64,000 bases of DNA from a bacterium (GCA_020440645.1 JAGRNR010000004.1:12762-76761), one strand, 5' to 3'; positions 24,809 through 63,021 are shown, counted from the stretch's first letter. Translations and numbers: made by a program. Notes: a model not told the origin generated them from the letters alone.

Positions 24809-26968
24809 ATGCTCCCGCTTAACAAACGTCCACCATTCGCCGGGTATCATCCTACTGTGATGGAGTATCCCGAGCAGGTCCACCGCAAGCTGCGCCAGTT
24901 GCCGGATTCACCGGGCGTGTACCAGATGAAGGACGCGCGCGGCAAGATCCTGTACATCGGCAAGGCGCTTGTGTTGAAGAACCGAGTCTCGAGCTACTTC
25001 ACCGCCGCTGCCGAGAGCGACCCGCGCATCGCCCAGCTGGTTACGGAGATCCGCGATCTGGACTGGATCGTGGTGCCGACCGAGATCGACGCGCTGATGC
25101 TGGAAAGCTCGCTGATCCGCACCTTCAAGCCGCGCTACAACACGATGCTCAAGGACGACAAGTCCTACCCCTACGTCAAGATCAGCACCAATGAGAAGTT
25201 CCCGCGCGTGATGCTGACGCGGCAGTACCTTGACGACGGCGCGCGCTACTGGGGGCCGATGACGAGCGTCGGGCAGGTCAGGAGCGCGATGAAGTTCATC
25301 GCCGGAATGTTCCAGCTCAGGACCTGCAAGCTGGAGATTGACGACGAGCACAAGTACCACAAGCCCTGCCTGGACTTCCACCTGAAGCTGTGCAGCGCGC
25401 CCTGTGTCGGCTACATCGACGAGAAGAAGTACGGCGCGCTGGTGCAGTACGCCGTGGACTTCTTCAATGGCAACTACGGCACCGTGATTGACGAGATGAA
25501 GAAGCGGATGTGGGAGGCGGCGGAGAACCGCGACTATGAAAGTGCGGCACGCTACCGCGACCTGATCGAGGCCGCCGAGAAGAGCTTCCAGCGCACGCGC
25601 ATGATCGGGCGGCCGGGAGAGAACTACGACGTGCTCGGGCTGGCGCGCAGCCGGGACAAGGCCTGCGTGCTGGTGATGCCGGTACGTGACGGGCGCCTGA
25701 TCGGCGACCGCAAGTTCGTGCTGGACCATCGCCTGGAGGACAGCGCTGACAACGACGTGCTATCCGGCTTCCTCAAGCTGCACTATGCCAACCCGCAGAA
25801 CGTGCCGCCTGAGCTTGTGCTGCCGCACCAGCCGCAGGATGCGGAGGTGATCCGCCAGTGGCTCGGCCGGCTGCGCTTCCAGGCGCTGGAGCACCGCGGT
25901 GAGGCTGAGGAGGTGGCGATCCTCGCCGGCAGCTTCGCGGAGAACGGCGAGGCCGGTGTGGTGCCGGAGCTGGTCTCCGGAGATGGCAATGTGGCGATCA
26001 CCGACACCGCCGGGATGCCGATCCGCCGCGTGCTGCTGACGACGCCGAAGCGCGGCAAGAAGCTGGAGCTCCTGGGGATTGCCAATCGCAATGCGCAGGA
26101 GCGCCTGCACACGGTGCTCTTGGGGGGTGGCGGAGACTACGTCGTCACGCCGGGGCAGAAGGCGCTCAAGGAGCACCTCTCGCTGCCGGACTACCCGCGC
26201 CGCATCGAGGGCTACGACATTGCCAACCTGCAGGGCCAGCAGGCCACGGGGGCGATGGTGGTGTTCACCGGCGGGCGCAAGGATGCCCCGGAGTACCGCC
26301 TGTTCAACATCCGCCTGAAGCAGACCCCGGATGACTACGCTATGCTGATGGAGACCCTGCACCGGCGGCTCAGGCGCCTGCTGACCGACCCGAAATGGAA
26401 GAAGCAGGTGGACCTCGTGATGATCGACGGCGGCAAGGGGCAGCTCAACAGCGTGCGCCGCGTGTTCGACCAGATGATGGACGACCCGGACCTGTCAACG
26501 GAGCAGCGCGAGGTGCTCGACGGCATCAAGCTGTGCAGCCTCGCCAAGCAGGAGGAGCTGGTCTACCACTACAACGACATTGACCAGCTGGAGGAGATCC
26601 GCCTGCCGCATACCGACCCCGGCCTGCGGCTGCTGGTGGAGCTGCGCAATGAGGCGCACCGCTTTGGCAACTCGCAGCACTCGAGGATGAAGGAGAAGGC
26701 GATGCGCATCTCGGTCCTGGACACCGTGCCGGGCCTGGGGGAGACGCGCAAGCGGGAGCTTTTGCGGCACTTCGGCAGCGTCAAGCGCCTGCGGGAAGCC
26801 ACGGTGGAGGAGCTGCTGGAGGTGAAGGGTATCGGCCGAGCATTCGCCGAGCACATCCGCAAGTACCTCGAGCGTGACAACGAGCTGGAGGAGGCCAAGA
26901 TGGAAAAAAAGCGCGAGATGCGCATCCGCCGCATCCGCCGCGAAGGCGACCCGGACCGGCCTGGGTAG
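24809..26968 (+). CDS. uvrC: Excinuclease ABC subunit C (UvrC) with short basic C-terminal tail
   Basis: GIY-YIG motif GVYQMKDARGKILYIGKA...YF, UvrBC-interaction and RNaseH-like regions, C-terminal HhH (LLRHFGSVKRLREATVEELLEVKGIGRAFAEHI). Likely start at MEYPEQV (24860). Tail MEKKREMRIRRIRREGDPDRPG. Confidence 0.9.
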   Translation: MLPLNKRPPFAGYHPTVMEYPEQVHRKLRQLPDSPGVYQMKDARGKILYIGKALVLKNRVSSYFTAAAESDPRIAQLVTEIRDLDWIVVPTEIDALMLESSLIRTFKPRYNTMLKDDKSYPYVKISTNEKFPRVMLTRQYLDDGARYWGPMTSVGQVRSAMKFIAGMFQLRTCKLEIDDEHKYHKPCLDFHLKLCSAPCVGYIDEKKYGALVQYAVDFFNGNYGTVIDEMKKRMWEAAENRDYESAARYRDLIEAAEKSFQRTRMIGRPGENYDVLGLARSRDKACVLVMPVRDGRLIGDRKFVLDHRLEDSADNDVLSGFLKLHYANPQNVPPELVLPHQPQDAEVIRQWLGRLRFQALEHRGEAEEVAILAGSFAENGEAGVVPELVSGDGNVAITDTAGMPIRRVLLTTPKRGKKLELLGIANRNAQERLHTVLLGGGGDYVVTPGQKALKEHLSLPDYPRRIEGYDIANLQGQQATGAMVVFTGGRKDAPEYRLFNIRLKQTPDDYAMLMETLHRRLRRLLTDPKWKKQVDLVMIDGGKGQLNSVRRVFDQMMDDPDLSTEQREVLDGIKLCSLAKQEELVYHYNDIDQLEEIRLPHTDPGLRLLVELRNEAHRFGNSQHSRMKEKAMRISVLDTVPGLGETRKRELLRHFGSVKRLREATVEELLEVKGIGRAFAEHIRKYLERDNELEEAKMEKKREMRIRRIRREGDPDRPG

Positions 26969-26977
26969 GAAGCAGTA

Positions 26978-29794
26978 TCATTGTTTTTCCAAGGATCGTT
27001 CAAATCTCATTTCTGCCAATCTAAGGTCCTTCAAGATACACATTTCTTCATGCGGTATCAACTTCTGATTTATTTCTAGAATTGCAGCGATAATCTCTTT
27101 TCCGCAATTCTGAAGATCCTGTATTGAATTCGAGCTATCACAACGACAGATTTCTAATAGAATTTCATTTGCGGAATCGTTATTGAATCCTCCGCTGATT
27201 AATTTGGTACATGTATCAAGTCTGAGCAATTGATATATTGCATAATCCATGTTGTCAGTTATTGAAGTTTCACTTATTAATTTATGCATTTCTTCCAAAT
27301 CCAGATAAACGTCCTGAATAATGTTGCAACGACACAAATACATTGCAGCACTTATTTTATCCTCCCATTGCCTGTCTTCTAATACAGCATACGCAACATC
27401 CCGGAAATAATCTGTGGCTTTACTGATTTTATTATTTTCAAAATACATAGAACCTATAGCCGCTTTTGCAAAGAGCTCTGCATGCTTATTGTATACATCT
27501 TCAGAAAGTCTGGCTGAAGTTTGGAGATATGATATACCGCTCAGAAAATCACTTTCACTTATGAAAATTCCAAGATTATTCAATGCAAAGATTTGTCCAA
27601 ATAGGTCATCATTTCCCCTGGCATGTTCAATAGCCTTCTCCAGTTTGTCAAGAACACCATCTTGGTTTCCGCACTTCAACCGACAGATAGCATGATGTGT
27701 CAGAAGCTCTGTTAAGCCACTGTATTCATTAAGTTCATTACATTGATCGAGGATCTCACAATACATCTTTTCAGCCTCGCGAACATCTCCCATTCGAGAT
27801 GTAAGTACAGCAATTCTTGTTTTGATCCTCAACAAAAGATCCTTGTCGATTGGATTGCAAGCATCAAGTGCTATTTTGAGCAATTCCATAGCTTCTGGCA
27901 GTTCTGAAGGTTTTATGTACTTCGATGCAAAGTGAAGCAAGAACTTGGGTGAACGTGGCGGTGATTCTGGCGATAGTTTCCTGGCTTCATTCCAAAAAAC
28001 TGTGGCGGTCTGCGAAATTTTTTCGAACTCCTCATAGTTCCTTTGATGTGAGTATCGAGACATCAAACTACAAGCAATCCAGTGGGCTGCATGATAATTC
28101 CCATCTAGTGCATATAGCTCCATTGCCTTCAAAGACATCATATCAGCATAGGAACTCGACGCTTGAATTGGTAGAGTCTCATAATATGCAAGAAAACTAT
28201 TGATCATGACTGATTGCCATTTCTCATCTGACACGGTCCCCGCCCGCTTCTCCGCATGCTCGCTCAGCCACTTCAGGGCATTGCGGCGTTCGTCGAACGG
28301 CCATTCATCGAGTTGGCCACCCTCGAACTGCAGGCGCAGCACGTTACCGAGGTATTCCTCCACCAATGTGTGTTCCTCGTTGTCAGCGCCGAAGCTCTGC
28401 CGCACACGCTCGAAGATCAGGCGGTGGCGGAAGCTGTACAGATGCGAAGTCGCAAGCTTCTGCTCACGGGTTACGAGCTGGTGGATGCGTCCGAGGTCGC
28501 CCAGCATCACACTGGCACGGCCGCGCTGCATCCCAAGATGTTCCGCGGTGTATGTGATCAGTTCATCGAGGAACTTCTGCCCCATCACACTGCCCCACTG
28601 CAGCACCCGCAGGCGGTCGCCATCCAGCAGGCGCAGGCGGCGGTCGATCACCTCGCCCACGCGCAGCGGGATCCGTGACAGCTCGGCGTCACCAACTTTC
28701 AGTGCACCGTTGCCATCCAGCCAGCCCTCCTCCTCGACGAGCTTTGCATAGTTGACGGCGTAGAACGGATGCTCGCCGGCGCGCTGCACGATCCGCGAGA
28801 TCGTCTCATCGCTGGCACCGGGCAGGTGGTCTGAGATGATCCCCGCCATTGATTCGCGGGTGAGGTCCTGTCCCAGCTCGATGCGAGTCACGCACTGGCC
28901 ATCGGCATGCCGCAGCAGTCCGTGCTCCAGTTCCGCAGCCGTGCTTGACAACCTGCCGGGGTCATCCTGGCGGGCCGCCAGCTGGGCTGCCAGCTCATTG
29001 GAACGGATCGTGGAGATGCACAGAAGTTTCCAGCCGCGCCGCAGGCCGAGGTCCAGCATGCGCTGCAGGAAGCCGAGGCTGCGTGCATCGGCCCATTGCG
29101 CGTCGTCAACCACAAGCACCAGCGGCACTGTGGGCAGCTTACTGTCCGCCTCGTCGTTGAGGGTTGCCAGCATGCGGCTGATCATGTCCTCGGGCTTCTG
29201 GCCGTTGTAGATGTCCGTCGCGCCGGCCACGCTCGTGACGTCGCGCGCGCTCTTCAGCTCGCGCTGCCGGCGGCCCAGTTGCCAGATCGAGCGCAGCGCG
29301 GCATATACATCAATCAGCGGTCCGGCCGGGGAGAAACCGAGCCCGGCCTCCATCACGGAGCGGCCGGTCTCCAGCCAGGCATCCTTCACGAGCTTGGCGC
29401 GCATGATGCCGTCCAGATGCAGCACGAGCTGGTCCATTGCGTCGAGGAAGGGGGAGAATCCCTCCCTGTCATGTTCATTGCCGGGAGGGCATGTGATTGC
29501 CCACCACATGAAGGGCAGTGCGCCACGTGGCGGCCGGCCCTTCGGGAACTCGGGCCGCAGGCTGTCAATCGTGTTCGCTCCGAGGGCGAGGTCGGGCCAG
29601 TAGCCCTCACGCCCCATGTCCAGCTGCGGGTCGTAACGGGTTGTCAGGATCTGGTAGAGTTCCTGCACCAGCCGCGTCTTACCCATGCCGGGCTCACCAG
29701 ACACCCGGACATACTGGACGTTGCCCTGGCGTGATTTCTCCCACGCGGAAACCAGCAGCTCAAGCTCAGCATCTCGGCCCCGTAACGGATACAT
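26978..29794 (-). CDS. STAND-type NTPase (N-terminal AAA_16-like ATPase) with C-terminal TPR-like sensor repeats; C-terminal ~530 aa encoded by AT-rich DNA
   Basis: N-terminus LRGRDAELELLVSAWEKSRQGNVQYVRVSGEPGMGKTRLVQELYQIL (Walker A GEPGMGKT); Walker B-like LVLVVDDAQWAD; no HTH at C-terminus. Coordinates 26978-~28200 are ~35-40% GC, 28200-29794 ~65% GC. Confidence 0.75.
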   Translation of the reverse strand: MYPLRGRDAELELLVSAWEKSRQGNVQYVRVSGEPGMGKTRLVQELYQILTTRYDPQLDMGREGYWPDLALGANTIDSLRPEFPKGRPPRGALPFMWWAITCPPGNEHDREGFSPFLDAMDQLVLHLDGIMRAKLVKDAWLETGRSVMEAGLGFSPAGPLIDVYAALRSIWQLGRRQRELKSARDVTSVAGATDIYNGQKPEDMISRMLATLNDEADSKLPTVPLVLVVDDAQWADARSLGFLQRMLDLGLRRGWKLLCISTIRSNELAAQLAARQDDPGRLSSTAAELEHGLLRHADGQCVTRIELGQDLTRESMAGIISDHLPGASDETISRIVQRAGEHPFYAVNYAKLVEEEGWLDGNGALKVGDAELSRIPLRVGEVIDRRLRLLDGDRLRVLQWGSVMGQKFLDELITYTAEHLGMQRGRASVMLGDLGRIHQLVTREQKLATSHLYSFRHRLIFERVRQSFGADNEEHTLVEEYLGNVLRLQFEGGQLDEWPFDERRNALKWLSEHAEKRAGTVSDEKWQSVMINSFLAYYETLPIQASSSYADMMSLKAMELYALDGNYHAAHWIACSLMSRYSHQRNYEEFEKISQTATVFWNEARKLSPESPPRSPKFLLHFASKYIKPSELPEAMELLKIALDACNPIDKDLLLRIKTRIAVLTSRMGDVREAEKMYCEILDQCNELNEYSGLTELLTHHAICRLKCGNQDGVLDKLEKAIEHARGNDDLFGQIFALNNLGIFISESDFLSGISYLQTSARLSEDVYNKHAELFAKAAIGSMYFENNKISKATDYFRDVAYAVLEDRQWEDKISAAMYLCRCNIIQDVYLDLEEMHKLISETSITDNMDYAIYQLLRLDTCTKLISGGFNNDSANEILLEICRCDSSNSIQDLQNCGKEIIAAILEINQKLIPHEEMCILKDLRLAEMRFERSLEKQ

Positions 29795-29840
29795 CCGTCA
29801 ATTATATGTAATCACCAACGCAGGAACCGGGAACCGGCAC

Positions 29841-30690
29841 TCAGTACCCCCGGATGTACCGCAGTTCCCCGGGGATTGCCCCCTCGATGCTCGTGATCAC
29901 CACCGGCAGTCCGCCCTGCAGGGCCATTGCGTTTGCCATGCCATGCTCAACGTCCATGACCGGCAGCCAGCTGGCGAACCATTCCTGCACGCCGGAGCGT
30001 GCCGGCAGCCAGGCCGGTCCGACGAGGAACAGTTCATTCGCATCCTCGCTGTAGCAGCAGATCTGCGGCAGTCCGCCATACTCCAGCACGGTGATGTAGC
30101 TGCCATACTGCAGGCTGAAACCATGGCTGACAATGCTCCAGTCCGTCGGCCCTGCCGGATCGTCTACCTTTGCGTAGCCATAGACGACATCGTCCCGCTT
30201 GGCTGCGAAAGCGGGCCGGCCGTCAATCACGGCACCGCGCATGAAGTTCATGAAGCCATCCGTTTCGCTGATGCGGTGGTGGCTGAAGTCAGCAACGGAA
30301 GCCGGGTTGCCATCGGTGCGATGTTGAATGCCATCTGCGCGCCGTCGAAGGAGAAGAACGCTGGCCTGCCGTCGTAGTCGAACAGCGAATAGCCGTGACC
30401 GTTGGGCTGCTCGGTGGCGCTTGCCACAGTCCAGTCCGAAGTTGCGGCCGGTATGGACTTTGTGCTGCGCAGCAGGAAACTGTCGTTGTCATCCAGCTCA
30501 GTCTCATTGCCGCGCGCGGATTGTCAGCAGCAGGCGGAAAAGCTGGCAGTGCAGTGCCAGGCAGCAGTGGTACAGTCTCTACGGACGGTCCGGCAGCATT
30601 GCCGTTGTCACCAGCCGGTGTGGTTCGGGCAGGCTGTTATGACCAGGAAACAAGCAGTGCAAGCAGCATCAGTAACGGTAATCGCAGCAT
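29841..30690 (-). pseudogene. Decayed gene for a secreted repeat protein (signal peptide MLRLPLLMLLALLVSWS followed by in-frame TAA and at least two frameshifts)
   Basis: Hand translation: ATG at 30690 gives a signal peptide followed directly by TAA; protein-like segments continue in two other frames (…SLFDYDGRPAFFSFDGAQMAFNIAP… then …FMRGAVIDGRPAFAAKRDDVVYGYAKVDD…GELRYIRGY*), sharing a DGRPAF repeat. Could alternatively reflect sequencing/assembly errors. Confidence 0.4.
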
Positions 30691-30757
30691 GGATGCACCT
30701 CCGCAAAGGCTGCACCAATACTAACACGCTGCCTGTTTGCGTGGCCAGGCCCGCAGC

Positions 30758-33586
30758 TCAGGTTCCTTCGGCATTCCCCTGCTGTTCAGCAATCCGCCGC
30801 TGCAGGTCCTGCACTTCGCCCGGCAGTTCCTGCAGCAGCACGGCTGTCGGGTCCTGCATCCGCTCACGGCACTCTTCAAGCAGCCCGGAGCAGAAGCTGA
30901 GGATGTCCGGATCGCCAGCATCATTCCTTCCAATGAACCGCTCCAGCTGCGATGCCTGCTGCGCGTCATGTGAGCCGCCATGCAGCAGCAGCGAAGCCTC
31001 GATCCTGGCGATATCCATCTTGGCGAGGCTGCCTGGGTTGTCAACATCCAGACCGCGGAACCAGCCCGCCAGCTCTACGGCTCGGGAGTAGTTGCCAATG
31101 CTGAGCTGTGCGCGCATCAGGGTGATGAAGAAGCGCATCAGTCGCAGGTGCGCATTGCGCTCGATGGCAATTGTGTATGCCGTCTCCAGCCGCGAGCAGG
31201 CCTGTTCGTAGTCACCCTCTGAGAAGTCAATCGATCCGAGCGAGCAGAGGCTGAACAGCCTTGAGCTTTCATCTCCGACTTCCTCCGCCATGTGCAGGGC
31301 CCGTTGCGTGTACTCATATGCCTGCGGGATGTCATCGTGCTTGGAGTAATAGACGCCGATGTTTGACGTGATCTGCGTAGCGTGCAGCTGGTCGCCGCTG
31401 GCCCTCGCGCAGTCCAGTGCCTGCAGCAGCAGGCTGATGCCCTGCTCATCGCGCTTCTGCAGCAGGTTGCACAGCGCCAGGTACTGCAGCAGCGATGTCC
31501 GGCTGATGTTCGTGCGCTCGCTGAAACCCTCGCTGTCCAGCCGCAGGAGGATCTCCTCAGCCTCCTGCAAGCGCCCTAGCTGCATCAGATAGCTTGCCAG
31601 CAGCAGGTCGCACTTGGCTAGCTGCGGCTCGTCCTCCGTTTCCACGGCGAGCTCGATCGCCTGTTCCGCCAGTTCCACCGCACGTGGCAGGTCGCCGTCC
31701 AGCAGTGCCACGGCCGAGCGTGAGATCTGCAGGTATGTCGACTGTTCCGGCAGGCTGGGGTCCTGCTCCCGGGCCAGTTGCCAGAGTGCTTCAGCCTGTG
31801 ATTCAAGCGTATCCAGTTGGTCAGTATGCTGGCGCTGGCGCTGGATCTTCACGGATTCAGCTGCCAGCTCATGCGCCTTCCTGTACAGCCCGGCTTCCTT
31901 CATCAGCCGGGTCGCCCTGTCCGCAAGGTCCATACGTTCGCGATTGCCGATTGGAATGGTGCTGAAGTAGAGCAGGAAACTCTCTATCTCAGTACGTTTC
32001 CAGCCTGCAGTGTCCTGCTCGCGGCGGCGCTTCTGCCTGTCCGCCGCGTAGTCGCTGAGCCAGCGCAGGGCGCTGCGCTGCTCGTCCTGCGGCAGCTCCC
32101 CCAGCAGCTTCTCCTCCATGTACTCCCGCAGCAGCTCGCCGAGGCAGTCCCGTACAAGTCCGTGCTCCGGGTTGTCATCTCCGAAGCCCTCCGCCACCCG
32201 CTCGAACAGCAGGCGATGGGTGAAGCCATACAACGACCAGTCCAGCTGCCGCTGCTGTCGGTTCACCAGCTGGTGCACTTCCGTCAATTCAGTCAGCCAG
32301 GCGCTGGCCCGGATCGGCTTGATGTCCATCTCACGCGATACGAGGGCGATCAGCTCATCGAGGAAGCGCTGGCCCTGCACGCTGGCCCATTCCAGCACCC
32401 GGCGACGGTTGCCATCCAGCAGGCGCAGGCGGCGGTCGATCAGCTCCCGGATGCCCGCCGGAATGCGGGACAGTTCATCGCTGCCAACCGTCAGTGCCCC
32501 GTTGCTGTCAACCCAGCCTTCCTCCCGGACCAGCAGCGCATAGTTCACGGCATAGAAGGGATGGTTGCCGGCGCGGCTTGCGATGGCCTGAATTGTCTCG
32601 TCAGACGCATGCGGGATGTGGTCGGAGATGATGCTGTTGATGGCTGCCTGGTCCAGGTCCTGCGTGAGGTCAATCCGGCGCACGTTGGCTTCACCGGTAT
32701 GCCGGATCAAGCCCGTCTCCAGCTCGGCGGCCGTGGCAGCCAGCCGGTTCTCCCCGTCCTCTGCTGCCCGCAGCTGGCTGGCCAGTTCGTTGGAGCGGAT
32801 CGTGCTGATGCACAACAGGCTCCACTCCCGCTCCACCCCGAGTTCCAGCATCCGCTGCACGAAGCCGAGGCTGCGCGCGTCCGCCCACTGCGCATCGTCC
32901 AGCACCAGCACCAGCGGGACGGTCGGCAGCTTGTTGTCCGCCGGGTCATTCAGCGTGGACAGCAGGCGGCTGATCATGTCTTCGGGCTTCTGCCCATGGT
33001 AGATGTCCTTCCCGCCTGAAAGTTCCGTGATGCTGCGGCCTCCCTTCAGTTCACGCTGGCGCTTGCCGAGTTGCCAGACCGAGCGAAGCGCGGCGTACAC
33101 GTCCACCAGCGGACCGACGGGTGTGAAGCCCAGCCCGGCCTCGAGGAAACTGCGTCCGGCATCCAACCAGGCATCCTTCACAAGCTTGGCACGCATGATG
33201 CCGTCGAGGTGCAGTGAAAGCTGCTCCATCGCATCAAGGAAGGGGGCGAAACTGTCCGGCACATGCTCATTGCCCTGGCGGCAGACCACCGCCCACCACA
33301 TGAATGGCAATGGGATCTTCGGCGGACCTTCCACGGGGAAGCGCGGCCGCACGCTATCGAGCACACGTGCGCCGAGGAACAGGTCGGGCCAGTAGCCGTT
33401 GCCGCTTTCAACTGCCGCCGGGTCGTACTGCGTTGTCAGGATGCGGTACAGCTCCTGCACCAGCCGGGTTTTGCCCAGCCCAGGCTCGCCCGCAATCCGC
33501 ACGTAACGCACCTGGCCCTGGCGTGCCTCTTCCCATGCCTCAACCAGTAGGGCGAGCTCGGCGTCCCGTCCGTGCAGTGCGTGCAT
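30758..33586 (-). CDS. STAND-type NTPase (AAA_16-like) with TPR-like repeats; paralog of 26978-29794
   Basis: MHALHGRDAELALLVEAWEEARQGQVRYVRIAGEPGLGKTRLVQELYRIL; LVLVLDDAQWAD; alignable with the neighbour over the N-terminal ~530 aa; uniformly GC-rich; C-terminus lacks HTH. Confidence 0.75.
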   Translation of the reverse strand: MHALHGRDAELALLVEAWEEARQGQVRYVRIAGEPGLGKTRLVQELYRILTTQYDPAAVESGNGYWPDLFLGARVLDSVRPRFPVEGPPKIPLPFMWWAVVCRQGNEHVPDSFAPFLDAMEQLSLHLDGIMRAKLVKDAWLDAGRSFLEAGLGFTPVGPLVDVYAALRSVWQLGKRQRELKGGRSITELSGGKDIYHGQKPEDMISRLLSTLNDPADNKLPTVPLVLVLDDAQWADARSLGFVQRMLELGVEREWSLLCISTIRSNELASQLRAAEDGENRLAATAAELETGLIRHTGEANVRRIDLTQDLDQAAINSIISDHIPHASDETIQAIASRAGNHPFYAVNYALLVREEGWVDSNGALTVGSDELSRIPAGIRELIDRRLRLLDGNRRRVLEWASVQGQRFLDELIALVSREMDIKPIRASAWLTELTEVHQLVNRQQRQLDWSLYGFTHRLLFERVAEGFGDDNPEHGLVRDCLGELLREYMEEKLLGELPQDEQRSALRWLSDYAADRQKRRREQDTAGWKRTEIESFLLYFSTIPIGNRERMDLADRATRLMKEAGLYRKAHELAAESVKIQRQRQHTDQLDTLESQAEALWQLAREQDPSLPEQSTYLQISRSAVALLDGDLPRAVELAEQAIELAVETEDEPQLAKCDLLLASYLMQLGRLQEAEEILLRLDSEGFSERTNISRTSLLQYLALCNLLQKRDEQGISLLLQALDCARASGDQLHATQITSNIGVYYSKHDDIPQAYEYTQRALHMAEEVGDESSRLFSLCSLGSIDFSEGDYEQACSRLETAYTIAIERNAHLRLMRFFITLMRAQLSIGNYSRAVELAGWFRGLDVDNPGSLAKMDIARIEASLLLHGGSHDAQQASQLERFIGRNDAGDPDILSFCSGLLEECRERMQDPTAVLLQELPGEVQDLQRRIAEQQGNAEGT

Positions 33587-33998: not shown

Positions 33999-34856
33999 TC
34001 ACTTCGTGACTGTCTTCCCGTCTGCATACATTTCGTCAAGCATCGCCAGCAGCAGCTCATGGCGGCGGTTGGTGAACTGCCTGGGGTCGTTTGTCAGCAT
34101 GATGTTGATCAGCAGAAGGGGCATGGCGGCGATTGGCAGTATGGCCAGCAGCAGGCCACTCGCCATCGCGGTGCCGCGCAGGACGGAAAGCACGCGCTCC
34201 GCCATCAACCGCCGGCGGACGGCGGAACCGCCCATCCCGAGGAACAGCTCAAGATTGTCAGCCATCAGCCGGCCATTCACAAGCTCCGTTTCTGTATGCT
34301 GGCCGCGTGCCAGGGGAGGCAGGCGCACCAGGTCGTATTCCGAAACCGGGCTGCCGTATACATTTGAGACAAGCTCCAGGATATCCAGTTCATGCAGCCG
34401 CTTGCCGAGTTGCTTCCTCAGGCCTGTTGAGGATTGGGCTCCAAGCGTGCATCCAACCGTAACTGTGGCCATCACTGCGATGGCAATGATTTCGGGTACG
34501 CTCCAGCCAACCTGCCCAAATGAGGGAAACAGGCTGTAACTGCCAATGGCGAAGAACAACAGCAGGACGACGATTCCAATCAGGAAAATGAACGAGATGG
34601 ACATGAAACTCCTGCCCACCCCGGCGAACAGTTGTTCGACGGAGCCATGTCCGCGTGTTGAGAGATACCAGTCCAGCACTTCCAGCAACTGCCAGTCGTC
34701 AGGTTCGTCCTCGTTGGTGACGACCGGTGACCACAGCTCCCAAAGAATCCTGCGCAGCTGCTTCGGGATGCGCCGGCCCTCGTGGAAGCGCTCCTTATTG
34801 GTCATGCCCCCGAGCTGCTGCCGCGTGATGTCCCCACTTGATTCCTGTTGGTCCAT
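33999..34856 (-). CDS. Integral membrane protein of unknown function
   Basis: Cytoplasmic N-terminal region then multiple TM helices (SISFIFLIGIVVLLLFFAIGSYSLF; IIAIAVMATVTVGCTLGA; LLLAILPIAAMPLLLINIML). Divergent from the ArsR-family gene. Confidence 0.5.
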   Translation of the reverse strand: MDQQESSGDITRQQLGGMTNKERFHEGRRIPKQLRRILWELWSPVVTNEDEPDDWQLLEVLDWYLSTRGHGSVEQLFAGVGRSFMSISFIFLIGIVVLLLFFAIGSYSLFPSFGQVGWSVPEIIAIAVMATVTVGCTLGAQSSTGLRKQLGKRLHELDILELVSNVYGSPVSEYDLVRLPPLARGQHTETELVNGRLMADNLELFLGMGGSAVRRRLMAERVLSVLRGTAMASGLLLAILPIAAMPLLLINIMLTNDPRQFTNRRHELLLAMLDEMYADGKTVTK

Positions 34857-49458: not shown

Positions 49459-52400
49459 ATGCGCACTTACACAAATCTCGTTGGTGGGTCCCCGGAAAGC
49501 GGCAGTGCTTCCACGGCTGACCTCACCCCTGGAACTGATATGACTGGAATATCCAATGGCGGAAACACCCCTCAGCACGCCCCTTGCGGGCAGCTCCGCG
49601 GACGCGCTGTGAAGCGCGGCCACCGGGGCGTCGTGCTGCTGGCCGTGATCATCTTCGTGGCGCTCCTGCTCCCGCTGGTGACGCTGGTCCTGACCAGCCT
49701 CAACACGGAAGCGGTCAGCACCGCAGAGGCGATCAAGGGCCACAAGCTGGACCTCGCGAGCCAGAAGGCGCTTAATGACGCCATCTCGCTCGTGGTGCAG
49801 CAGAAGTCCCTGCCGGACTATTACAGCTCGGCCAACCAGCCGGCCACGGCGATCGTCGTGCTCGACCCGGTCAGCGGCTTCCGCCGTGACCAGGTGCCGG
49901 ACAGCGGCGTGGTCGGTGCTGCGGGCCTCGACGACATCCTCGGCACGGGAGACGACTACTGGACCAGTCCCCGTGGCGACCGTTCCGTGCTGCCGACGGA
50001 TGTCTACGACCACACCCGCAACTATGAGTTCGACTTCAGCTTCAGCCAGATGCATTCGCCGACCTACCTCGGCCAGCCCTCGCTGCTGTCGTCAACCAAC
50101 CGCTACAACGGCACGAGCCCGAACACCGGCGAGACCATCTGGCTGTTCAACCCCTACCTGGCGGTGGCGGTTGACGATGATGCCGACGGAATTGACGACG
50201 GTTACGACCCGAACGACGCCGGTGGCGACCCGTTTGACGGCAAGGAGGCCCAGCTGCATGGCAACGGTGGTTTCCCGAATGCTGACGAGCCCCGTCTGAA
50301 CGGGCCCGGAAGTGCCGTCGAACGCAGCCTTGACAACGGAAACAACATCCGGGACTACATGCTCAACTCGCGCATCGCGATCTACGAGAGCGTGTTCACC
50401 GACCTCGACCGCGGCCCCGTGCCGACGGACCTGCTGAAGAGCTATGCCGACGTGACCGATGAGGCCGGCCGCATCAACCTGAACATCTTCTGCAAGAAGG
50501 TGCGCGTGCTGATGCCGGAGGCCGCCGACGTCGACTACAACCTCGAGGGCCTGGCAACCAACGACTTCAACTACAACGAGCAGCTCAACGAGCTCGGCTT
50601 CAAGTGGATTGACAACCCGCTGTTCCCGGACCGCCTGACCAACCAGCGCTGGAACTGGAACATCCCGGCCGGCACGCTGTCCAATGACGGCGATATCGAC
50701 TTCGGTACGCTTGACCCGTCCACCGGCATCCCGGACCCGACCCCGGACGGCTACTCCTGGCCTGACCTGGGCGAGAACGTGCAGCACTTCTACCTCGGCG
50801 ACACCGATGGCGACGGCATTTCCCAGGGCAACGAGGCCGCGCGCCACAGTGTCGAGATGCTGACCAGCCTGCCTGGCGTCGACCTGGAGCTGGCACTCAA
50901 CATCCTCGAGTACCTCAACCCGAGCCAGGACACGCTCAACGCGATCGACCCGGGCTACGCTGATGGCAGCGTCGAGCCCAACATCGACCCGACCATCGGC
51001 GCCGCGGGCTACCGCTATGACGTGGCCAACGTCACCCCGCCGCTGACCGCGCTCGGCATCAACCTCGCGGGCGGCACCGTCGGCAGCATCTTCTGGGACT
51101 TCGCCGCCAGCGATGAGGACGACATGCCGCTGCCGCAGCCCTTCGCGCTTTCGAGCCTGGACCAGCTGCTCAACGTGCCCGGCATGACCCGCGCCAAGTT
51201 CAACAGGCTGAAGGACTACCTGACGATCCACAGCTATGACACCAACGTGATCGGCACCTACATCACCGACGTCGGCCCGGATGCCGACCTGGTGAACGCC
51301 TACGAGGCCGGTGACCCGTTCTTCTTCGGCCAGGTGCGCCGCACCGTGCCGGATGACATGCGCGACACTGACAATGTCAACGACCTGCGCTACGACGTCA
51401 CCGCCACCGCCGGCGGTTTCTCGCTCGAGGACTACCGCGACCGCGCGGAGGAGATGTACGCCTACATCCGCGAGCACCTGCCGAGCACCAACTTCCGCAA
51501 GATCACCCTGCCGGCGGTCGACCGCACCGGCCGCAGTGGCGCGTCAGACCACATGACGCCCAATGACGACCCGCGCTACGACCCGACCGGTGGTGGCCTG
51601 CTTGTGCCGCACCGCGACAGCGAGGCCAACCCCTACAACGTCGGCGCCTTCGGCCACCAGTTCCCGACCAGCGACGAGGCCTTCACGAACTTCGCCGGCT
51701 ACCCGGCGCTGAACCCCGAGTTCAGCCTGGACAGCTGCCTTTCAATCGTGCTCTACCGCAACGGTACGCCGTTCACCGCCGATGACTACACCTACGACTG
51801 GAACGGCGTGAACATGGCTGCCCACCCGGCCAGCCCGGGCATCGGCAACCTGTTCGGCGGCGGTGCGTTCTTCTTCATCGAGCGCATCTTCGGCATCTTC
51901 GGCGGCGGCTTCGACTTCGGTCCGAACAACAACCCGCCGGACGGCTTCGACTTCGCCACGCTGGCCAACACGAACAATGCCAACCCGGTCGTCACTCCGC
52001 ACGGCCCCGGCGTGTTCACCGCTGCCAACCTGCTCAACCCGGGCACCTTCGACAGCGCGGCTGACCTGCTGCAGGTCCCGCTCTACGAGTTCAGCAGCAT
52101 GAGTGTCAGCCTGATGTCCGACCCGCCGTCAGACTACCGTGACCCGATTGTCAACCAGAACGGCATCGTGAGCTACTACGCCACCTTCAGTGACGTGGTG
52201 CCGGTCAGCTGGTACTTCGACAACGTGACCGGCCCCGACGGCAACCTCGGCACGGCAGATGACCCGGCGCAGGACGTGGTGCTGTACATGCTGTACTTCA
52301 ACTACGCCAACCGCACCGGTGTGTTCCCCTCCGCGGGTGGCCCGTATGACGCTCCCTCGCTCAGCGCTGACACGGTGCAGATTCCGCTCACCGCGCAGCA

Positions 52401-55400
52401 GATCCGCTCGGTCAGCCCGGTGTTCCCCGGCATGACCGGCAATGTCACGATCCAGGCCTATGACAACTTCAACAACCTGGACGTGCTCGGCCCCGACTTC
52501 ACCAACAGCCCGGCATTCGCCAGCACGCTGGCCCCGCTCGGCGGCGTCGGCAGCCTCGGCCGCAACTTCAGCTACCAGCAGGTCCCGTACCCGCTGGGTG
52601 GCGGCGTGACGGATGATGGCAACTGGCGCCCGAACGAGGGCAATGCCTGGGACACCGGTGTGGCCCCGGTGCAGTGGCCCGGCTGGGCCTGGACCGGTGA
52701 AGGCGACCCCTACGCCACCGGCCGCATCCTGGCCTACCGCTGGGATGACAATGCCAATGAGCCGGAGGACCCGGAACTGCGCGCGGATGACATCACCAAG
52801 GTCTTCCTGCAGAACAACACCGAGGCCGCGATCCCGTTCGCGGTCAACATCCTGCCGGTGCGCACCGGTGGCGACACATATGACATCTACTCCAGCTACG
52901 GCGGCGCGGACACCTCCGGCGGCGGCAGCTACCTGCTGTTCGACTGGGAGTACCGCGACACGCTCGGCCCGGATGACGACCCGGATGACTTCGACGGCAC
53001 CTGGCCGACGGAGCAGCCCGGGCAGCTGATCAACAACCCGATCCAGATCCGCGTCAACCCGGAGGGCAACACGGTCACGCTGCACATGTATGACCTGCGC
53101 AGCTTCGTTGACTCCAGTGGCCTGCCGATCGCCAGCGGCACGCCTGCGCTGCCCGGCAACATCTATGCCGGCGGCCGCGTGCAGACCACCCCGTCTGACG
53201 GCGGCACCTTCCCGGTGGACTACGGCGGTGGCTACCCGCCGGTGCCGACTGCTGGCTATGCCTTCGACAGCGCCGTGATCTCCCCGATCGAGACCGCCGC
53301 CGGCTTCCAGGCCCAGCTTGCCAGCCATGAGGTCTCCGTGTTTGACAACGACACCAGTGTCGAGGTCGAGATGAGTGCCGCCGGTGGCGACCTGAACTAC
53401 AACTGGGAACTGCGCGTGCTTGACGCGACGCTTGGCAACGGTGCCGGCGGCCCCTACCAGGGTCCCGACGGTGCCGGCCCGATCGCCAGCTTCCCCGGCC
53501 TCGGCAGCCCGCCGCGTCCGTCCCGCGTCACTCCCCCGGGATTCGACTATGCAGCCGCCGAGCTCGTGCCCGGCACCCTGCTGGTCGTGGCCGGCAGCAG
53601 CAGCAGCCCCGAGTGGAACACATTCTTCGACCCGAGCGGCCTGCCGAACAACACCGAGTACTGGCTGCGCCTGCGTGTCACCGAGAACGGCGGCACGACG
53701 GACACCGTGTTCAGCAAGCTCGTGAAGGACGACGAGTCCTCCAGCAGCACCGGCACCGCCATCCCGCCGGAGATGAACGCCAGCATCACCCTGCGTGAGC
53801 TCGGTGACAGCCGCCTCGGCTTCACCGCGAGCGCTTCCGTGGACGGCGGCCGTGACGGCTACGGCTACTACTGGGTCCTGACCCGCCCGAAGTACAACGG
53901 CACCGGCAACCACGTGCTGGACAGCGCAATCCCGATGGAGACCGTCGACGCGGCGGCCCCGATCGTGAACCTCGACAGCCTGACGACCGGCGGCGGTGCG
54001 GTCAGCACCACGGTGCAGATGCGCTCCAACGACGCCAGCCCGAGCTTCGAGTTCAGCCAGCTTGACAACTATGACAACGAGACCGGCGCGGCCGGCGCGG
54101 ACGGCATCCCGGATGCGCAGGGTGTGTACTTCGTGCACTGCTTCGTGCTCGACCGCAACAACCTGCTGCCCTCCAGCGGCCAGTCTTTCATCGCGCATGA
54201 CGTGGCGCAGGTGACCCTGAGCAACCTCGGCACCGGCGGCAGCGGAGTGCCCGACACCTCCGGCATCGCCCGCACCCCGATGGCGGTGCTGGCGGCGAAC
54301 CCGCCGGGCAATGCCAGCATCTCAGCCGGCACCAACAACAGCGCCGCCGGTGGTGCGAACCCGCCCTACATCGGCAGTGCGACCATCGACCCGGCAATTG
54401 AGCCCGACGTGGCCGCCAACGGCCAGGCGATCGTGATCCGCGGTTTCAACTTCGACCCGGTTGCCAGCAACAACACCGTGCACTTCGCCGGTGGCGTGAG
54501 CGCGACCGGCGCCGGTGTGACGGCCCCGAGCGGAGTTGACATCCTCAACATCGGCGGCTCGCCCTACGGCCAGCAGGAGCTGACCGTGCGCGTGCCGGAC
54601 GGCGCCCGCACCGGCTTCATCACCGTGCAGACCCCGGGTGGCACCAGTGATCGCCGCTACATCTTCCAGACCGGCTTCAACGTGACCTTCGACCTGATCG
54701 GCAGCCTGTCCGTGAATGATGCGGCCTACCTGCAGTACGACCTGGACTTCCAGGGCGACGGCAAGATCGACTACAGCTACAGCTCACTGAGCAACCCGTC
54801 CGGTGGACGCCAGCTGATCGGCAGCAACCTCGGCATCACCCATGACTACGCCGGCGACGGCATCGGCAACTACAACGCCACCCTGACGGTCAAGGACCTC
54901 GTCAGCGGGCGCACCGCCGTCAGCCACCAGCTGGTGATGATCCATGACCTTGCCAACGTGAGCGGCACGAACCTCGTGCTTGCCAGCGGCTTCATCGGCA
55001 ACATCTTCCTGGCCGGCACGCCGTCCTTCACGGATGGTGCAGCGAGCTTCATCAGCGCCGGCGTGCTGCCGGGCGACCTGGTGACCAACCTGAACACCGG
55101 AGCCACCACCAGCGTTGTCAGCGTGATCTCGCAGAACGAGGTTGGCTGCGGCAGCCTGAGCGCCCCGCAGTGGAACATCGGCGATGCCTACAGCATCAGC
55201 CGCTTCGTTGACAGCAACGGCGCCTACGGCATCCTGGCCGACATCTGGCCGGACATCGACACCCGCGGTGCCAGCTTCAACCCGCAGCCCGGCAGTGGCC
55301 TGGCCTTCCGCAGCGCGGTCGGCGGCATCAACACCGCCCTGGCCCGCCGCAAGTGGCAGATCGACCTGAACGGCACCAGTGGCACCCGTGGCGGTGAGCA

Positions 55401-60134: not shown

Positions 60135-60249
60135 ATCCAAATTGCACCGTAGCCCCGTGCTACTGTTAGCGCTGCACAGTTGGATACTGCCCTGTTGGTA
60201 TGGGCAGGAAATTACACGGATTGTTAATCTGTCCGTGAGGAGCGATTGG

Positions 60250-63021
<2,772 letters not shown>

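Follow-up and report, generated by a model that had tools for sequence, protein, structure and literature searches.

Gene content of the locus

The window analysed here is a 64,000-nt stretch of DNA (GCA_020440645.1, JAGRNR010000004.1) from an uncultured planctomycete, in which gene A is one of two adjoining signalling-ATPase genes; the other is paralog B (Table 1). The neighbours of gene A are uvrC, glyoxalase- and AHSA1-family genes, an HTH regulator, PKD proteins, pilins and a secretin. ORF136 gave no match to Pfam, NCBIfam or PADLOC models. In the 500 nt upstream of it, text like that of a signal peptide and of a coding region is distributed between two other frames, and the motif DGRPAF recurs; ORF136 is probably the 3′ remnant of a decayed gene for a secreted protein or lipoprotein. 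No mobile-element signature, embedded RNA or tandem repeats were found.

Table 1. Features of the locus, in window coordinates
Feature	Position	Strand	Basis or remark
uvrC, convergent with gene A	24809..26968	+	Pfam UvrC domains
Hairpin and T-run resembling a terminator, downstream of gene A and within the coding sequence of uvrC	26907..26936	-	
Lineage-specific segment, 3.79 kb (gene A, ORF136, spacers)	26969..30757		Absent from the sister lineage
Gene A, 938-aa STAND-like NTPase with TPR sensor	26978..29794	-	ORF, translation; NCBI MCB1185965.1 'AAA family ATPase [bacterium]'
Gene A, AT-rich 3′ part (aa 521–938 and stop codon)	26978..28233	-	TPR-like sensor module
Compositional junction (codons ~518–524, ..GTV/SDEKWQ..)	28222..28242	-	Change point codon 521
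Gene A, GC-rich 5′ part (aa 1–520)	28234..29794	-	NTPase, putative helical and winged-helix-like region, putative arm helices
ORF136, hypothetical protein directly upstream of gene A	29841..30251	-	GC3 0.78
Paralog B, 942-aa STAND-like NTPase with TPR sensor	30758..33586	-	GC-rich throughout, 0.655 then 0.613
Hypervariable C-terminal tip of paralog B (codons 841–942)	30758..31065	-	58% aa identity, dS 0.88 versus sister lineage

Gene A changes composition at codon 521

The initial annotation had claimed an abrupt GC switch within the reading frame of gene A, with its boundary at 28200. Sliding-window GC and a change-point analysis bear out the switch and place it close by, ~35 nt from the position first given: the maximum-likelihood change point is gene nucleotide 1561, i.e. 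codon 521 (window ~28233/28234), with a GC content of 0.645 (64.5%) before and 0.383 (38.3%) after it, ~26 points apart. Measured in 300-nt windows, GC is 0.64–0.66 at 26550–26999, 0.33–0.42 over 27000–28199, 0.50 at 28050–28349 and 0.59–0.67 from 28200 upward. A change point calculated from GC3 only falls on the same codon (0.80 versus 0.34). The 3′ boundary is equally sharp: gene A is AT-rich up to its stop codon at 26978–26980, and uvrC, convergent and GC-rich, ends with its stop codon at 26966–26968, which leaves 9 nt between the two genes. The recalculated profile is far from uniform, as the AT-rich segment has z = -8.6 against the remaining 1200-nt windows (mean 0.624, sd 0.028, minimum 0.539). 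GC of the whole window is 0.621; scanning the 64 kb in 1200-nt windows revealed no second AT-rich patch, and the other genes are all of host composition.

For comparison we took 111 AAA_16 genes, distant relatives of gene A in public genomic and metagenomic data. Splitting each gene into two segments gave a best GC difference of 0.262 for gene A, against a median of 0.034 and a maximum of 0.145 among these relatives. Furthermore, GC3 of the N-terminal minus that of the C-terminal part is 0.45 in gene A and 0.02 on average in 102 relatives (sd 0.049), a distance of ~8.7 sd. Across the wider family, GC3 is slightly lower for the C-terminal than for the N-terminal half (mean difference +0.02, Wilcoxon p = 2.7e-4), and two distant relatives, L054 and L085, display milder C-terminal GC drops of similar type.

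All three codon positions shift together, from a GC1/2/3 of 0.70/0.43/0.80 in the 5′ part to 0.47/0.34/0.35 in the AT-rich part. The latter values lie near those for a genome of ~38% GC under the relation of codon-position GC to genome GC that Muto and Osawa, and Lawrence and Ochman, reportedly employed. The amino-acid bias described in the initial annotation was recovered as well: F, Y, M, I, N and K together make up 30.6% of the AT-rich part versus 16.3% of the GC-rich part. Codon usage, which had been suggested as a check, is foreign in the AT-rich part and host-like in the 5′ part, with a correlation of relative synonymous codon usage (RSCU) between the two of -0.51. ATA accounts for 35% of Ile (2% in host genes), AGA and AGG for 52% of Arg (8%), TTA and TTG reach 40% (3%) and GGA 62% (7%). 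At the junction the codon style changes from GGG ACC GTG to TCA GAT GAG AAA TGG CAA TCA. The AT-rich DNA holds no more promoter-like sites than shuffled sequence does.

The reading frame and the assembly are genuine

The AT-rich reading frame is real and under constraint. It comprises 418 open codons (P = 3.5e-14 at its base composition), the longest open run among 2000 shuffles being 184 codons, and the other five frames hold 17–39 stops each in this part. The exact gene A protein is found on four contigs (NCBI MCB1185965.1 and ENA) of 0.2–1 Mb each (longest on record 338,482 nt). The initial annotation had named mis-assembly at the junction as a possible artefact. However, a separate Logan assembly (SRR6747764) crosses both junctions at 100% identity, covering 415 nt upstream of the 5′ junction and continuing through uvrC, and the switch is therefore not a mis-assembly.

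The junction falls between an NTPase core and a TPR-like sensor

Gene A contains a P-loop NTPase domain with Walker A and Walker B motifs, as in the STAND class, that begins at residue 4. The Pfam AAA_16 model matches with E = 3.2e-18 in gene A and 7.9e-15 in paralog B. Both motifs are invariant in the four family members compared (A, B, P0005 and P0006), namely G36, G38, K39 and T40 of Walker A (GEPGMGKT) and D230 and D231 of Walker B (DDAQWAD). The winged-helix-like region (aa 376–469) was poorly modelled, with pLDDT below 50. The AlphaFold2 model of gene A displays helical hairpins throughout aa 550–800 (pLDDT ~80–94) and low-confidence helices in the last ~100 aa. TPR_12 matches with E = 2e-6, which is under Pfam's cut-off, and hundreds of TPR proteins match aa 660–800 in a HMMER scan; paralog B carries a TPR_MalT-type Pfam match. 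The model and these matches agree with the TPR-like nature ascribed to the AT-rich region at the outset, and the predicted C-terminal repeat sensor is of the TPR kind. The junction sits in a loop between modelled helices 500–520 and 524–540, which supports reading the break as a domain linker between NTPase core and TPR sensor. Pfam, NCBIfam and PADLOC gave no further domain, and hence no fused effector, in A or B. The best PDB fold match to gene A is 6MFV, the STAND-TPR protein PH0952 (E = 6.9e-9), and sequence searches gave no match to any PDB chain.

Paralog B has a collinear counterpart of the AT-rich module

The 5′ part of A and paralog B have 65% aa identity and 71–76% nt identity with conserved blocks. 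According to the initial annotation the AT-rich region had no counterpart in the paralog. This was not upheld: the AT-rich sensor aligns to B collinearly and nearly without gaps at 20–26% identity, hhalign gives 97% probability over 263 columns (26% identity), and B is the best full-length match to the module among 1.84 billion representatives in an exhaustive HMMER scan. The junction coincides with a 3-residue indel between A and B, just ahead of the shared motif SFLxYxxTxPI.

The two halves differ in their relationships. N-terminal identity is 65% between A and B versus 37–40% to P0005 and P0006, whereas C-terminal identity is 20% between A and B, not above the 21% between B and P0006. This mismatch is suggestive rather than decisive, as identities near 20% are saturated. 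Differences between A and B are saturated too, with transitions not in excess (235:201). Deaminase-type hypermutation was considered and rejected, given the lack of a transition excess and of strand-specific skew. Gene conversion between A and B was likewise rejected, as the repeat search reported no near-identical tract and its best pair reached 76% identity over 300 nt.

Relatives of the AT-rich module and the search for a donor

The proposed search with the AT-rich segment for its donor lineage was carried out and yielded no donor in any collection. A search of 5.8 billion clusters returned solely the module's own cluster. In the HMMER scan of the 1.84 billion representatives its own fragment came first, followed by paralog B and then generic TPR proteins; 2 of 148 further matches also resemble the NTPase, distantly. 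The module found no match in JGI metagenomes or in IMG/VR, and tblastn against plasmids and phages gave just cyanobacterial CHAT/TPR proteins at 23% identity. No new relatives were obtained with a junction-spanning query, and the C-terminal parts of ~110 distant relatives are without meaningful similarity to the module. Matching of RSCU to the fetched loci was uninformative (the highest correlation, r = 0.60, was with a gene from a metagenome, taxon unknown). GTDB genomes were scanned with the GC-rich part and with the whole-family alignment: the former gave no close relative and the latter AAA_16 proteins only, at 30% identity or less. The cluster homologue search missed B with the N-terminal A query and also missed P0011, so that its negatives weigh less than those of the exhaustive scan. 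The sole relatives found for the AT-rich module are thus its own variants and paralog B, and neither a donor lineage nor a phylogeny nesting the module elsewhere emerged from the collections searched. A protein fragment from a soil metagenome, P0003, starts within 3 residues of the junction, and in soil variants of A the C-terminal tip is 90.5% identical versus 97–98.5% elsewhere.

A sister lineage lacks the 3.79-kb segment

The sister locus L164 (GCA_020440665.1) aligns at ~96% to window positions 43586–30813 and 26968–24818. In L164, B adjoins uvrC with overlapping stop codons (CTAG), and L165–L170 are arranged alike; these loci without A represent one lineage, L164 and L170 being 99.99% identical. 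P0163 was considered as a third locus variant and rejected as an unrelated, mis-clustered sequence. An orthologue of B, P0161 (UNM08940.1, 'Planctomycetales bacterium'), lies on a 4.11-Mb contig.

Divergence from the sister climbs sharply on both flanks of the segment. In uvrC, dS rises from 0.11 in the first 1860 nt to 0.40 in the last 246 nt; a 285-aa gene has a dS of 0.05. Paralog B is a mosaic in which a tract with dS 0.005 lies beside tracts of 0.2–0.9, with an overall span of 0.005 to 0.88; outside the tip it has 96–99% aa identity and a dS of 0.005–0.28. Its tip has a dN/dS of 0.42, versus 0.07–0.11 for codons 1–430 and 730–840. The T7 run of the hairpin downstream of gene A arises from two synonymous changes in uvrC relative to the sister (GAG AAG to GAA AAA). 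The elevated flank divergence suggests that the haplotype bearing A is old, or that a more distant relative supplied it through homologous recombination. Since the whole gene lies on a lineage-specific segment with unusually divergent flanks, a swap need not have occurred at the present locus.

DISCUSSION

Origin of gene A

Taken as a whole, we consider it probable that gene A is a genuine in-frame chimera, an accessory gene in which an AT-rich sensor is joined to a GC-rich STAND core that is an old paralogue of the neighbouring B. The first 520 codons would represent a P-loop NTPase core of STAND type with a history in a GC-rich planctomycete background, and the last 418 codons a TPR-like sensor from the same narrow subfamily with the composition of a ~30–40% GC genome. 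Since all codon positions and the amino-acid content are shifted, the module would have resided for long in a low-GC genome, which makes a sensor swap or horizontal origin the best reading. The two parts were most likely joined in frame by recombination at the linker ahead of the sensor. The AT-rich part would have been added recently, as it has scarcely drifted to host composition, and the chimeric gene is an accessory one, lying with a decayed upstream gene on the 3.79-kb segment between B and uvrC. The AT-rich DNA ends less than 10 nt from the stop codon without a foreign flank, a neatness not expected of a simple illegitimate insertion. The domain swap or horizontal acquisition of the sensor proposed in the initial annotation is accordingly retained as far as composition and codon usage fit it; no donor came to light, and the swap may have taken place at another locus.

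Could the switch be an artefact in which the assembler joined two unrelated metagenomic fragments? The sequence comes from a metagenome-assembled genome, and mis-joins classically show up as sudden changes in GC. However, the same protein on four contigs and the identical Logan assembly across both junctions speak against it, as does a junction that is in frame, at a helix–helix loop, collinear with paralog B and followed by a motif common to B; we regard such a chimera of assembly as extremely improbable. The polarity of the exchange deserves more thought, as the data show just two compositional classes meeting at codon 521. A whole AT-rich family member could have arrived from a low-GC donor and had its first 1.56 kb overwritten by a GC-rich resident paralogue via gene conversion, which would make the NTPase half the replaced part, and the N-terminal parts are recombinable, A and B having 71–76% nt identity with conserved blocks. 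Nevertheless B is not the converting copy, as no repeat pair above 76% identity was reported, and a third, closer paralogue would be needed, none of which was seen in the window or in protein searches. The GC-rich decayed gene directly upstream of A furthermore implies a native 5′ neighbourhood, and we hold this reverse course of events to be unlikely.

An origin in place, with the sensor of A deriving from an A/B duplication and turned AT-rich by local AT-biased mutation or relaxed selection, would account for the failure to find a donor in any database searched and predicts what the scan returned, namely that the nearest relative of the module among the 1.84 billion representatives is the adjacent paralogue B. 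The slightly lower GC3 of C-terminal halves in the family and the milder drops in L054 and L085 point the same way. On the other hand, the shift is confined to a 1.25-kb block with boundaries sharp to ~10–30 nt on both sides and a frame that is still open, and we know of no bacterial process that gives such a sharp-edged block with an open frame. GC1, GC2 and amino-acid content are shifted as expected from long residence at low GC, neither a transition excess nor a strand-specific skew is seen, and B and all other genes in the 64 kb keep host composition. Divergence in place therefore appears very unlikely to us, and the joining of a foreign sensor to a resident core is preferred.

Known systems and function

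The E. coli protein MalT and the Pyrococcus horikoshii protein PH0952 (6MFV) resemble A and B in combining a P-loop NTPase, helical domains (putative in A and B) and a C-terminal TPR solenoid. The effector of MalT is a C-terminal LuxR-type domain. That of PH0952 is an N-terminal ArsR-like domain (PMC6468293), and autoinhibitory contacts between nucleotide-binding domain (NBD) and sensor have been described for both proteins (PMC6468293). A and B differ from MalT and PH0952 in carrying no DNA-binding effector. The two nonetheless offer a plausible functional model, in which an inducer lifts the autoinhibition between sensor and NBD and ATP-dependent multimerisation follows. By this analogy the TPR module would bind an inducer and keep the NTPase closed until the inducer comes, and A and B would have a common signalling core and different ligands.

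The initial annotation likened gene A to rapidly diversifying immune-type NTPases. The locus does diversify fast; an immune type is not supported, with no PADLOC match, effector or defence context found for gene A. A and B might be antiviral or conflict-type STAND receptors of the Avs/NLR kind, with sensor exchange as part of an arms race with phages or competitors and not of altered metabolite or regulatory sensing. In Avs and bacterial NLR-like proteins, too, the STAND NTPase is central and the C-terminal repeat sensor highly variable, typically of TPR type in Avs, and these proteins turn over fast between strains (PMC10907252). Close lineages differ in whether they have gene A, the tip of B is hypervariable (58% aa identity, dN/dS 0.42) and the tips of soil A variants are more variable than the rest. 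However, PADLOC returned 0 families for A and just a generic TPR model for B, effector domains are absent from the N- and C-termini, and the neighbours are housekeeping genes, with neither a cell-killing effector nor a defence-island neighbourhood found at gene A. The neighbourhoods of the two nearest homologues, P0005 and P0006, are unlike each other and not defence-like either. Thus we judge a defence function to be unlikely, and an immune role of gene A is not supported.

In its evolution gene A resembles the polymorphic toxins Rhs and CdiA: in these, too, a conserved core is followed, from a fixed junction onward, by a variable C-terminal module of different composition. E. coli Rhs has a 'GC-rich core and AT-rich core-extension' within one ORF (PMC7259588), and the C-terminal diversity of Rhs/CdiA comes from recombination with cassettes (PMC3482391). 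In contrast to these, the variable part of gene A is a TPR sensor and not a toxin, YD or filamentous repeats are absent, and neither a downstream immunity gene nor orphan cassettes follow, uvrC lying 9 nt downstream; the resemblance would be evolutionary, not functional. Diversity-generating retroelements (DGRs) of multicellular bacteria diversify C-terminal STAND sensors, often in duplicated target genes, by mutagenesis of C-type lectin variable regions through a neighbouring reverse transcriptase (PMC10907252). Gene A differs from such targets in its TPR-like sensor and in a change that comprises 1.25 kb of composition and not adenine-specific sites. Pfam detected no reverse transcriptase in the neighbours of gene A and in ten large ORFs of the window, and repeat searches gave no DGR template repeat.

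Implications for STAND receptors

Whether STAND/NLR-type ATPases gain new receptor specificities by trading entire sensor modules is an active issue in bacterial immunity and signalling. Gene A provides an unusually clear natural example, with a break at the linker, a gap of 26 GC points and a sister haplotype without A for comparison. It also poses a structural puzzle, as a sensor only ~20% identical to that of B would have to remain compatible with a core that is 65% identical, though the sensors of PH0952 and MalT contact the NTPase and so hold it inactive (PMC6468293). The start of P0003 near the junction, the hypervariable tips in A and B and the GC drops in L054 and L085 are hints that the AT-rich module may belong to a shared stock of interchangeable sensor cassettes, with the linker as the fixed point of exchange, in an effector-less planctomycete STAND family. 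We think this improbable; if true, it would make the family a polymorphic-receptor system and not a one-off chimera, with cassettes crossing between genomes that differ widely in GC. There is already good documentation of mosaic genes and of sensor shuffling, and gene A refines these established ideas without changing them: it represents a clean, though not unprecedented, case of receptor-module exchange in bacteria.

A compositional break at codon 521 of gene A

The initial annotation had described an abrupt GC switch near position 28200 inside a STAND-like NTPase gene (gene A, 938 aa), and recalculation bore this out. In 300-nt windows GC lies at 0.59–0.67 over 28200–29800, passes through 0.50 at 28050–28349, remains at 0.33–0.42 over 27000–28199 and is back to at least 0.64 at and below 26999, in the convergent gene uvrC. 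A two-segment likelihood fit placed the break at nucleotide 1561 of the gene, codon 521 (window ~28234), with GC of 0.645 on the 5′ side and 0.383 on the 3′ side; a fit to GC3 only returned the same codon (GC3 0.80 versus 0.34). Codon style switches from ...GGG ACC GTG before the break to TCA GAT GAG AAA TGG CAA TCA... after it. At its far end the AT-rich block terminates at the gene A stop codon, and the stop of uvrC follows 9 nt beyond. Compared with the remaining 1200-nt windows (mean 0.624, sd 0.028, minimum 0.539; overall GC of the window 0.621) the block has z = −8.6, and no second patch of more than ~700 nt with GC below 0.49 was found in the window. As an outside control we used 111 distantly related AAA_16 genes extracted from fetched loci: their best two-segment GC difference had a median of 0.034 and a maximum of 0.145 (n = 111) versus 0.262 in gene A, and with the split fixed at codon 520 GC3 of the N-terminal part exceeded that of the C-terminal part by 0.020 on average (sd 0.049, 102 genes) versus 0.45 in gene A.

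Across the family GC3 is slightly lower in the C-terminal halves (mean 0.02, Wilcoxon p = 2.7e-4). Two distant AAA_16–TPR genes were observed with weaker GC decreases in their C-terminal halves: GC3 0.57 to 0.32 in a Thermoplasmata archaeon MAG (L054, 5174–8032), and GC3 down to 0.28–0.38 around codons 600–800 on metagenome contig Ga0163144_10116995 (L085, 497–3889).

The AT-rich part (1,254 nt, residues 521–938, hereafter the module) consists of 418 open codons, which has a probability of 3.5e-14 at its own base composition; no frame of 2000 shuffled sequences stayed open for more than 184 codons, and 17–39 stops interrupt each of the five alternative frames. The exact protein is on record as NCBI MCB1185965.1 ('AAA family ATPase [bacterium]') and occurs on four contigs of 0.2–1 Mb each (longest on record 338,482 nt). 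That a mis-assembly joined the two halves is exceedingly improbable: the separate Logan assembly of SRR6747764 crosses the junction into uvrC, with 100% identity over 415 nt of the GC-rich side, the entire AT-rich block and uvrC. Three protein fragments from soil run SRR5690606 (P0003, P0011 and P0004) are 98.5%, 97% and 90.5% identical to residues 524–653, 609–726 and 834–938, respectively; slightly different alleles of the module are therefore present elsewhere. P0003 starts at residue 524, at most 3 residues from the compositional junction. The soil variants are closest in the first two thirds of the module and more variable over its last 105 residues, mirroring the hypervariable tip of the neighbouring paralog B.

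Domain architecture and structural model

Residues 1–520 match Pfam AAA_16 (E = 3e-18), and the Walker A (GEPGMGKT) and Walker B (DDAQWAD) motifs include residues that are invariant across the four known family members. An AlphaFold2 model built from a four-sequence alignment (mean pLDDT 69) is confident at residues 550–800 (pLDDT ~80–94), which form helical hairpins in series, and poor at residues 376–469 and over the last ~100 residues. The best PDB fold match was 6MFV, the STAND-TPR protein PH0952 (E = 6.9e-9), followed by generic TPR scaffolds; by sequence no PDB chain was matched. The junction is located in the loop joining model helices 500–520 and 524–540 and coincides with a 3-residue indel between A and B; judging from the model, it would be a structurally tolerant spot for joining two pieces. 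Domain searches found no effector domain at either end of A or B.

Relationship of the module to paralog B

The module had been thought to have no counterpart in the paralog, which proved incorrect. The alignment of A and B (942 aa) is collinear, spans 813 residues and contains 8 gaps, and hhalign of the A module against a profile of B (from this lineage and its sister) and P0006 gave a probability of 97% (E = 3e-11, 26% identity). The first 270 positions of this alignment are strictly collinear, and no similarity was detectable by hhalign over the last ~140 residues. The pairwise alignment, proposed as a breakpoint check, located the same site: sliding-window identity is 50–90% up to codon 520 and 10–30% thereafter, the drop coinciding with the GC switch. 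Directly past the junction there is a conserved island, SFLAYYETLPI in A versus SFLLYFSTIPI in B. An exhaustive HMMER search of 1.84 billion representatives with the module ranked its own 118-aa fragment first and B second (E = 9e-16); the matches after B were generic TPR proteins only, covering residues 660–800. The family of A and B is very rare. Besides B, the nearest relatives of the NTPase half of A are P0005 and P0006. N-terminal identity is 65% between A and B versus 37–40% to these two, whereas C-terminal identity between A and B is 20%, not above that between B and P0006 (21%). Such discordant relationships of the two ends would support a foreign sensor without being decisive, since ~20% identity is near saturation.

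The word-indexed protein search missed B (65% identical) from the A N-terminal query as well as the 97%-identical P0011, and its negatives should be read with care. P0163, a 54-aa member of the 90% cluster of B, turned out to be an unrelated sequence.

Composition and possible origin of the sensor

All three codon positions shift at the junction, with GC1/2/3 of 0.70/0.43/0.80 in the 5′ part and 0.47/0.34/0.35 in the module. F+Y+M+I+N+K account for 16% of residues in the 5′ part and 31% in the module, G+A+R+P for 31% and 18%, respectively. In the module ATA makes up 35% of Ile codons (2% in host genes), AGA+AGG 52% of Arg (8%), TTA+TTG 40% of Leu (3%) and GGA 62% of Gly (7%). RSCU values of the two halves of gene A correlate at −0.51. 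The amelioration work of Lawrence and Ochman reportedly gives regression coefficients of codon-position GC against genome GC; with these coefficients, the module is near the values expected for a genome of ~38% GC (0.51/0.37/0.33). The donor GC implied by GC1 and GC2 is somewhat lower and that implied by GC3 somewhat higher, an offset in the direction of slight amelioration that is within noise at 418 codons.

The initial annotation had proposed a recent domain swap or horizontal acquisition of the sensor. Composition and codon usage are indeed foreign, and gene A is probably a chimera with a sensor of foreign composition; if the variant of reverse polarity is included, a chimera is quite likely. 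What failed was the search with the segment alone for its donor lineage: no donor was found in any collection searched, and this absence counts against a foreign origin. The alternative that the module turned AT-rich in place by drift appears improbable to us. Differences between A and B are saturated, and those from G/C to A/T comprise 235 transitions versus 201 transversions; with no transition excess and ordinary strand skews in the module, nothing indicates deaminase-like hypermutation. Under the preferred reading of a foreign sensor, a donor gene from within the A/B subfamily is to be expected, since the motif following the junction is common to the module and B and missing from P0005 and P0006. 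Our guess would be a low-GC relative, possibly another planctomycete.

A lineage-specific segment between uvrC and paralog B

Orthologues of B exist at 90% identity or more, among them P0161 (UNM08940.1, 'Planctomycetales bacterium') on a 4.11-Mb contig. Seven loci of a sister lineage (L164–L170) are syntenic with the window and ~96% identical; L164 1–12774 corresponds to window 43586–30813, and L164 12826–14976 to window 26968–24818. In all seven loci B directly meets uvrC, the stop codons overlapping (CTAG), and the counterpart of a 3,789-nt segment comprising gene A, ORF136 and spacers is missing. Gene A did not arise by recent duplication of B, as the two are just 71% identical in nucleotides where alignable.

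Features of the window around gene A and their divergence from the sister lineage
Feature	Position (strand)	dS to sister	Remarks
uvrC, first 1860 nt		0.11
uvrC, last 246 nt		0.40
uvrC, 3′ end	26720–26968 (+)		89–90% identical to sister versus 96–99% further in
Synonymous changes in uvrC	26903–26908		GAG AAG to GAA AAA
Segment missing in sister	26969–30757
Gene A	26978–29794 (−)
Gene A stop codon	26978–26980 (−)
Gene A residues 834–938	26981–27295 (−)
ORF136	29841–30251 (−)		GC3 0.78
B–A spacer and ORF136	29841–30757 (−)
Paralog B	30758–33586 (−)		L164 10001–12829
B codons 1–430		0.28
B codons 437–729		0.005
B codons 730–840		0.20
B codons 841–942		0.88	58% amino acid identity, dN/dS 0.42
285-aa gene upstream of B	33999–34856 (−)	0.046
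3,507-aa ORF	49459–59982 (+)
Secretin	60142–63021

Divergence from the sister climbs toward the segment from both sides, which implies a tract of ~4.3 kb (~26720–31065) whose history is much older, or more distant, than that of the DNA around it. The tract fits an import by homologous recombination, its source being a more divergent relative in which gene A was already beside uvrC, and it also fits a presence/absence polymorphism maintained for a long time. The loci lacking gene A are all one lineage (L164 and L170 are 99.99% identical), and the difference may reflect either gain or loss of the segment. Host-like DNA (ORF136 and the 5′ half of A) and the AT-rich block both lie inside the segment, so a single donor cannot have supplied all of it in one piece: gene A either was chimeric before the segment arrived or had its sensor exchanged later.

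Compared with the sister, B is a recombination mosaic with its lowest protein identity over the last 102 codons. The two synonymous changes in uvrC yield the T7 run of a hairpin that resembles a terminator for gene A and lies on the strand opposite uvrC. The spacer between B and A together with ORF136 resembles one decayed gene for a secreted protein or lipoprotein: MLRLPLLMLLALLVSWS, which resembles a signal peptide, comes before a stop, past which coding-like text appears in two other frames with the DGRPAF motif repeated. A single nonsense mutation plus two frameshifts would explain the decay.

Possible function and relation to known systems

In PH0952 and MalT the nucleotide-binding domain is kept closed, with ADP bound, by the TPR sensor together with the arm; once an inducer binds, this hold is released and multimerisation becomes possible (PMC6468293). 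If A and B act in this way, two signalling cores that resemble each other would be coupled to sensors that differ strongly, and the proteins would answer to different ligands; all functional readings of the two proteins we infer. The nearest homologues lie beside unrelated genes, and the local neighbours of gene A are uvrC, glyoxalase- and AHSA1-family genes, an HTH regulator, PKD-domain proteins, prolyl oligopeptidases, pilins and a secretin, a housekeeping context. Since PADLOC has no model matching gene A, the 'immune-type' label of the initial annotation is not established. Variation of the type known from conflict systems (PMC10907252) is nonetheless observed: gene A is present in one lineage and absent from the other, B is a mosaic, and both paralogs have C-terminal tips that are hypervariable.

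The 285-aa protein encoded upstream of B contains stretches that are hydrophobic and membrane-like, matches no family and is kept beside B in the sister; it may act together with the STAND proteins, which lack an effector. The 3,507-aa ORF, whose sole Pfam match is one PKD domain, adjoins pilin-like (N_methyl) genes and the secretin. These genes are a large surface-protein or secretion cluster, separate from the gene A finding.

The architecture of gene A, as known here from sequence and model, agrees with that of STAND proteins bearing a TPR sensor; it differs from the STAND class in having no fused effector. Closest in evolutionary pattern are Rhs and CdiA, with a conserved core and a variable, compositionally distinct C-terminal module at a fixed joint. 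E. coli Rhs has a 'GC-rich core' and an 'AT-rich core-extension' (PMC7259588), and the diversity of polymorphic toxins stems from recombination with cassettes (PMC3482391). Unlike these systems, the gene A locus is without toxin, immunity gene or orphan cassette. DGRs diversify STAND sensors by a different mechanism, and no DGR components were detected at this locus: Pfam scans of the neighbours of gene A and of ten large ORFs of the window revealed no reverse transcriptase, and no template repeat turned up in repeat searches. That genes can be mosaic, and that STAND genes move horizontally and have their sensors shuffled, is established, and the case of gene A stays within known evolutionary mechanisms, as an unusually clean and well delimited example with a useful sister haplotype.
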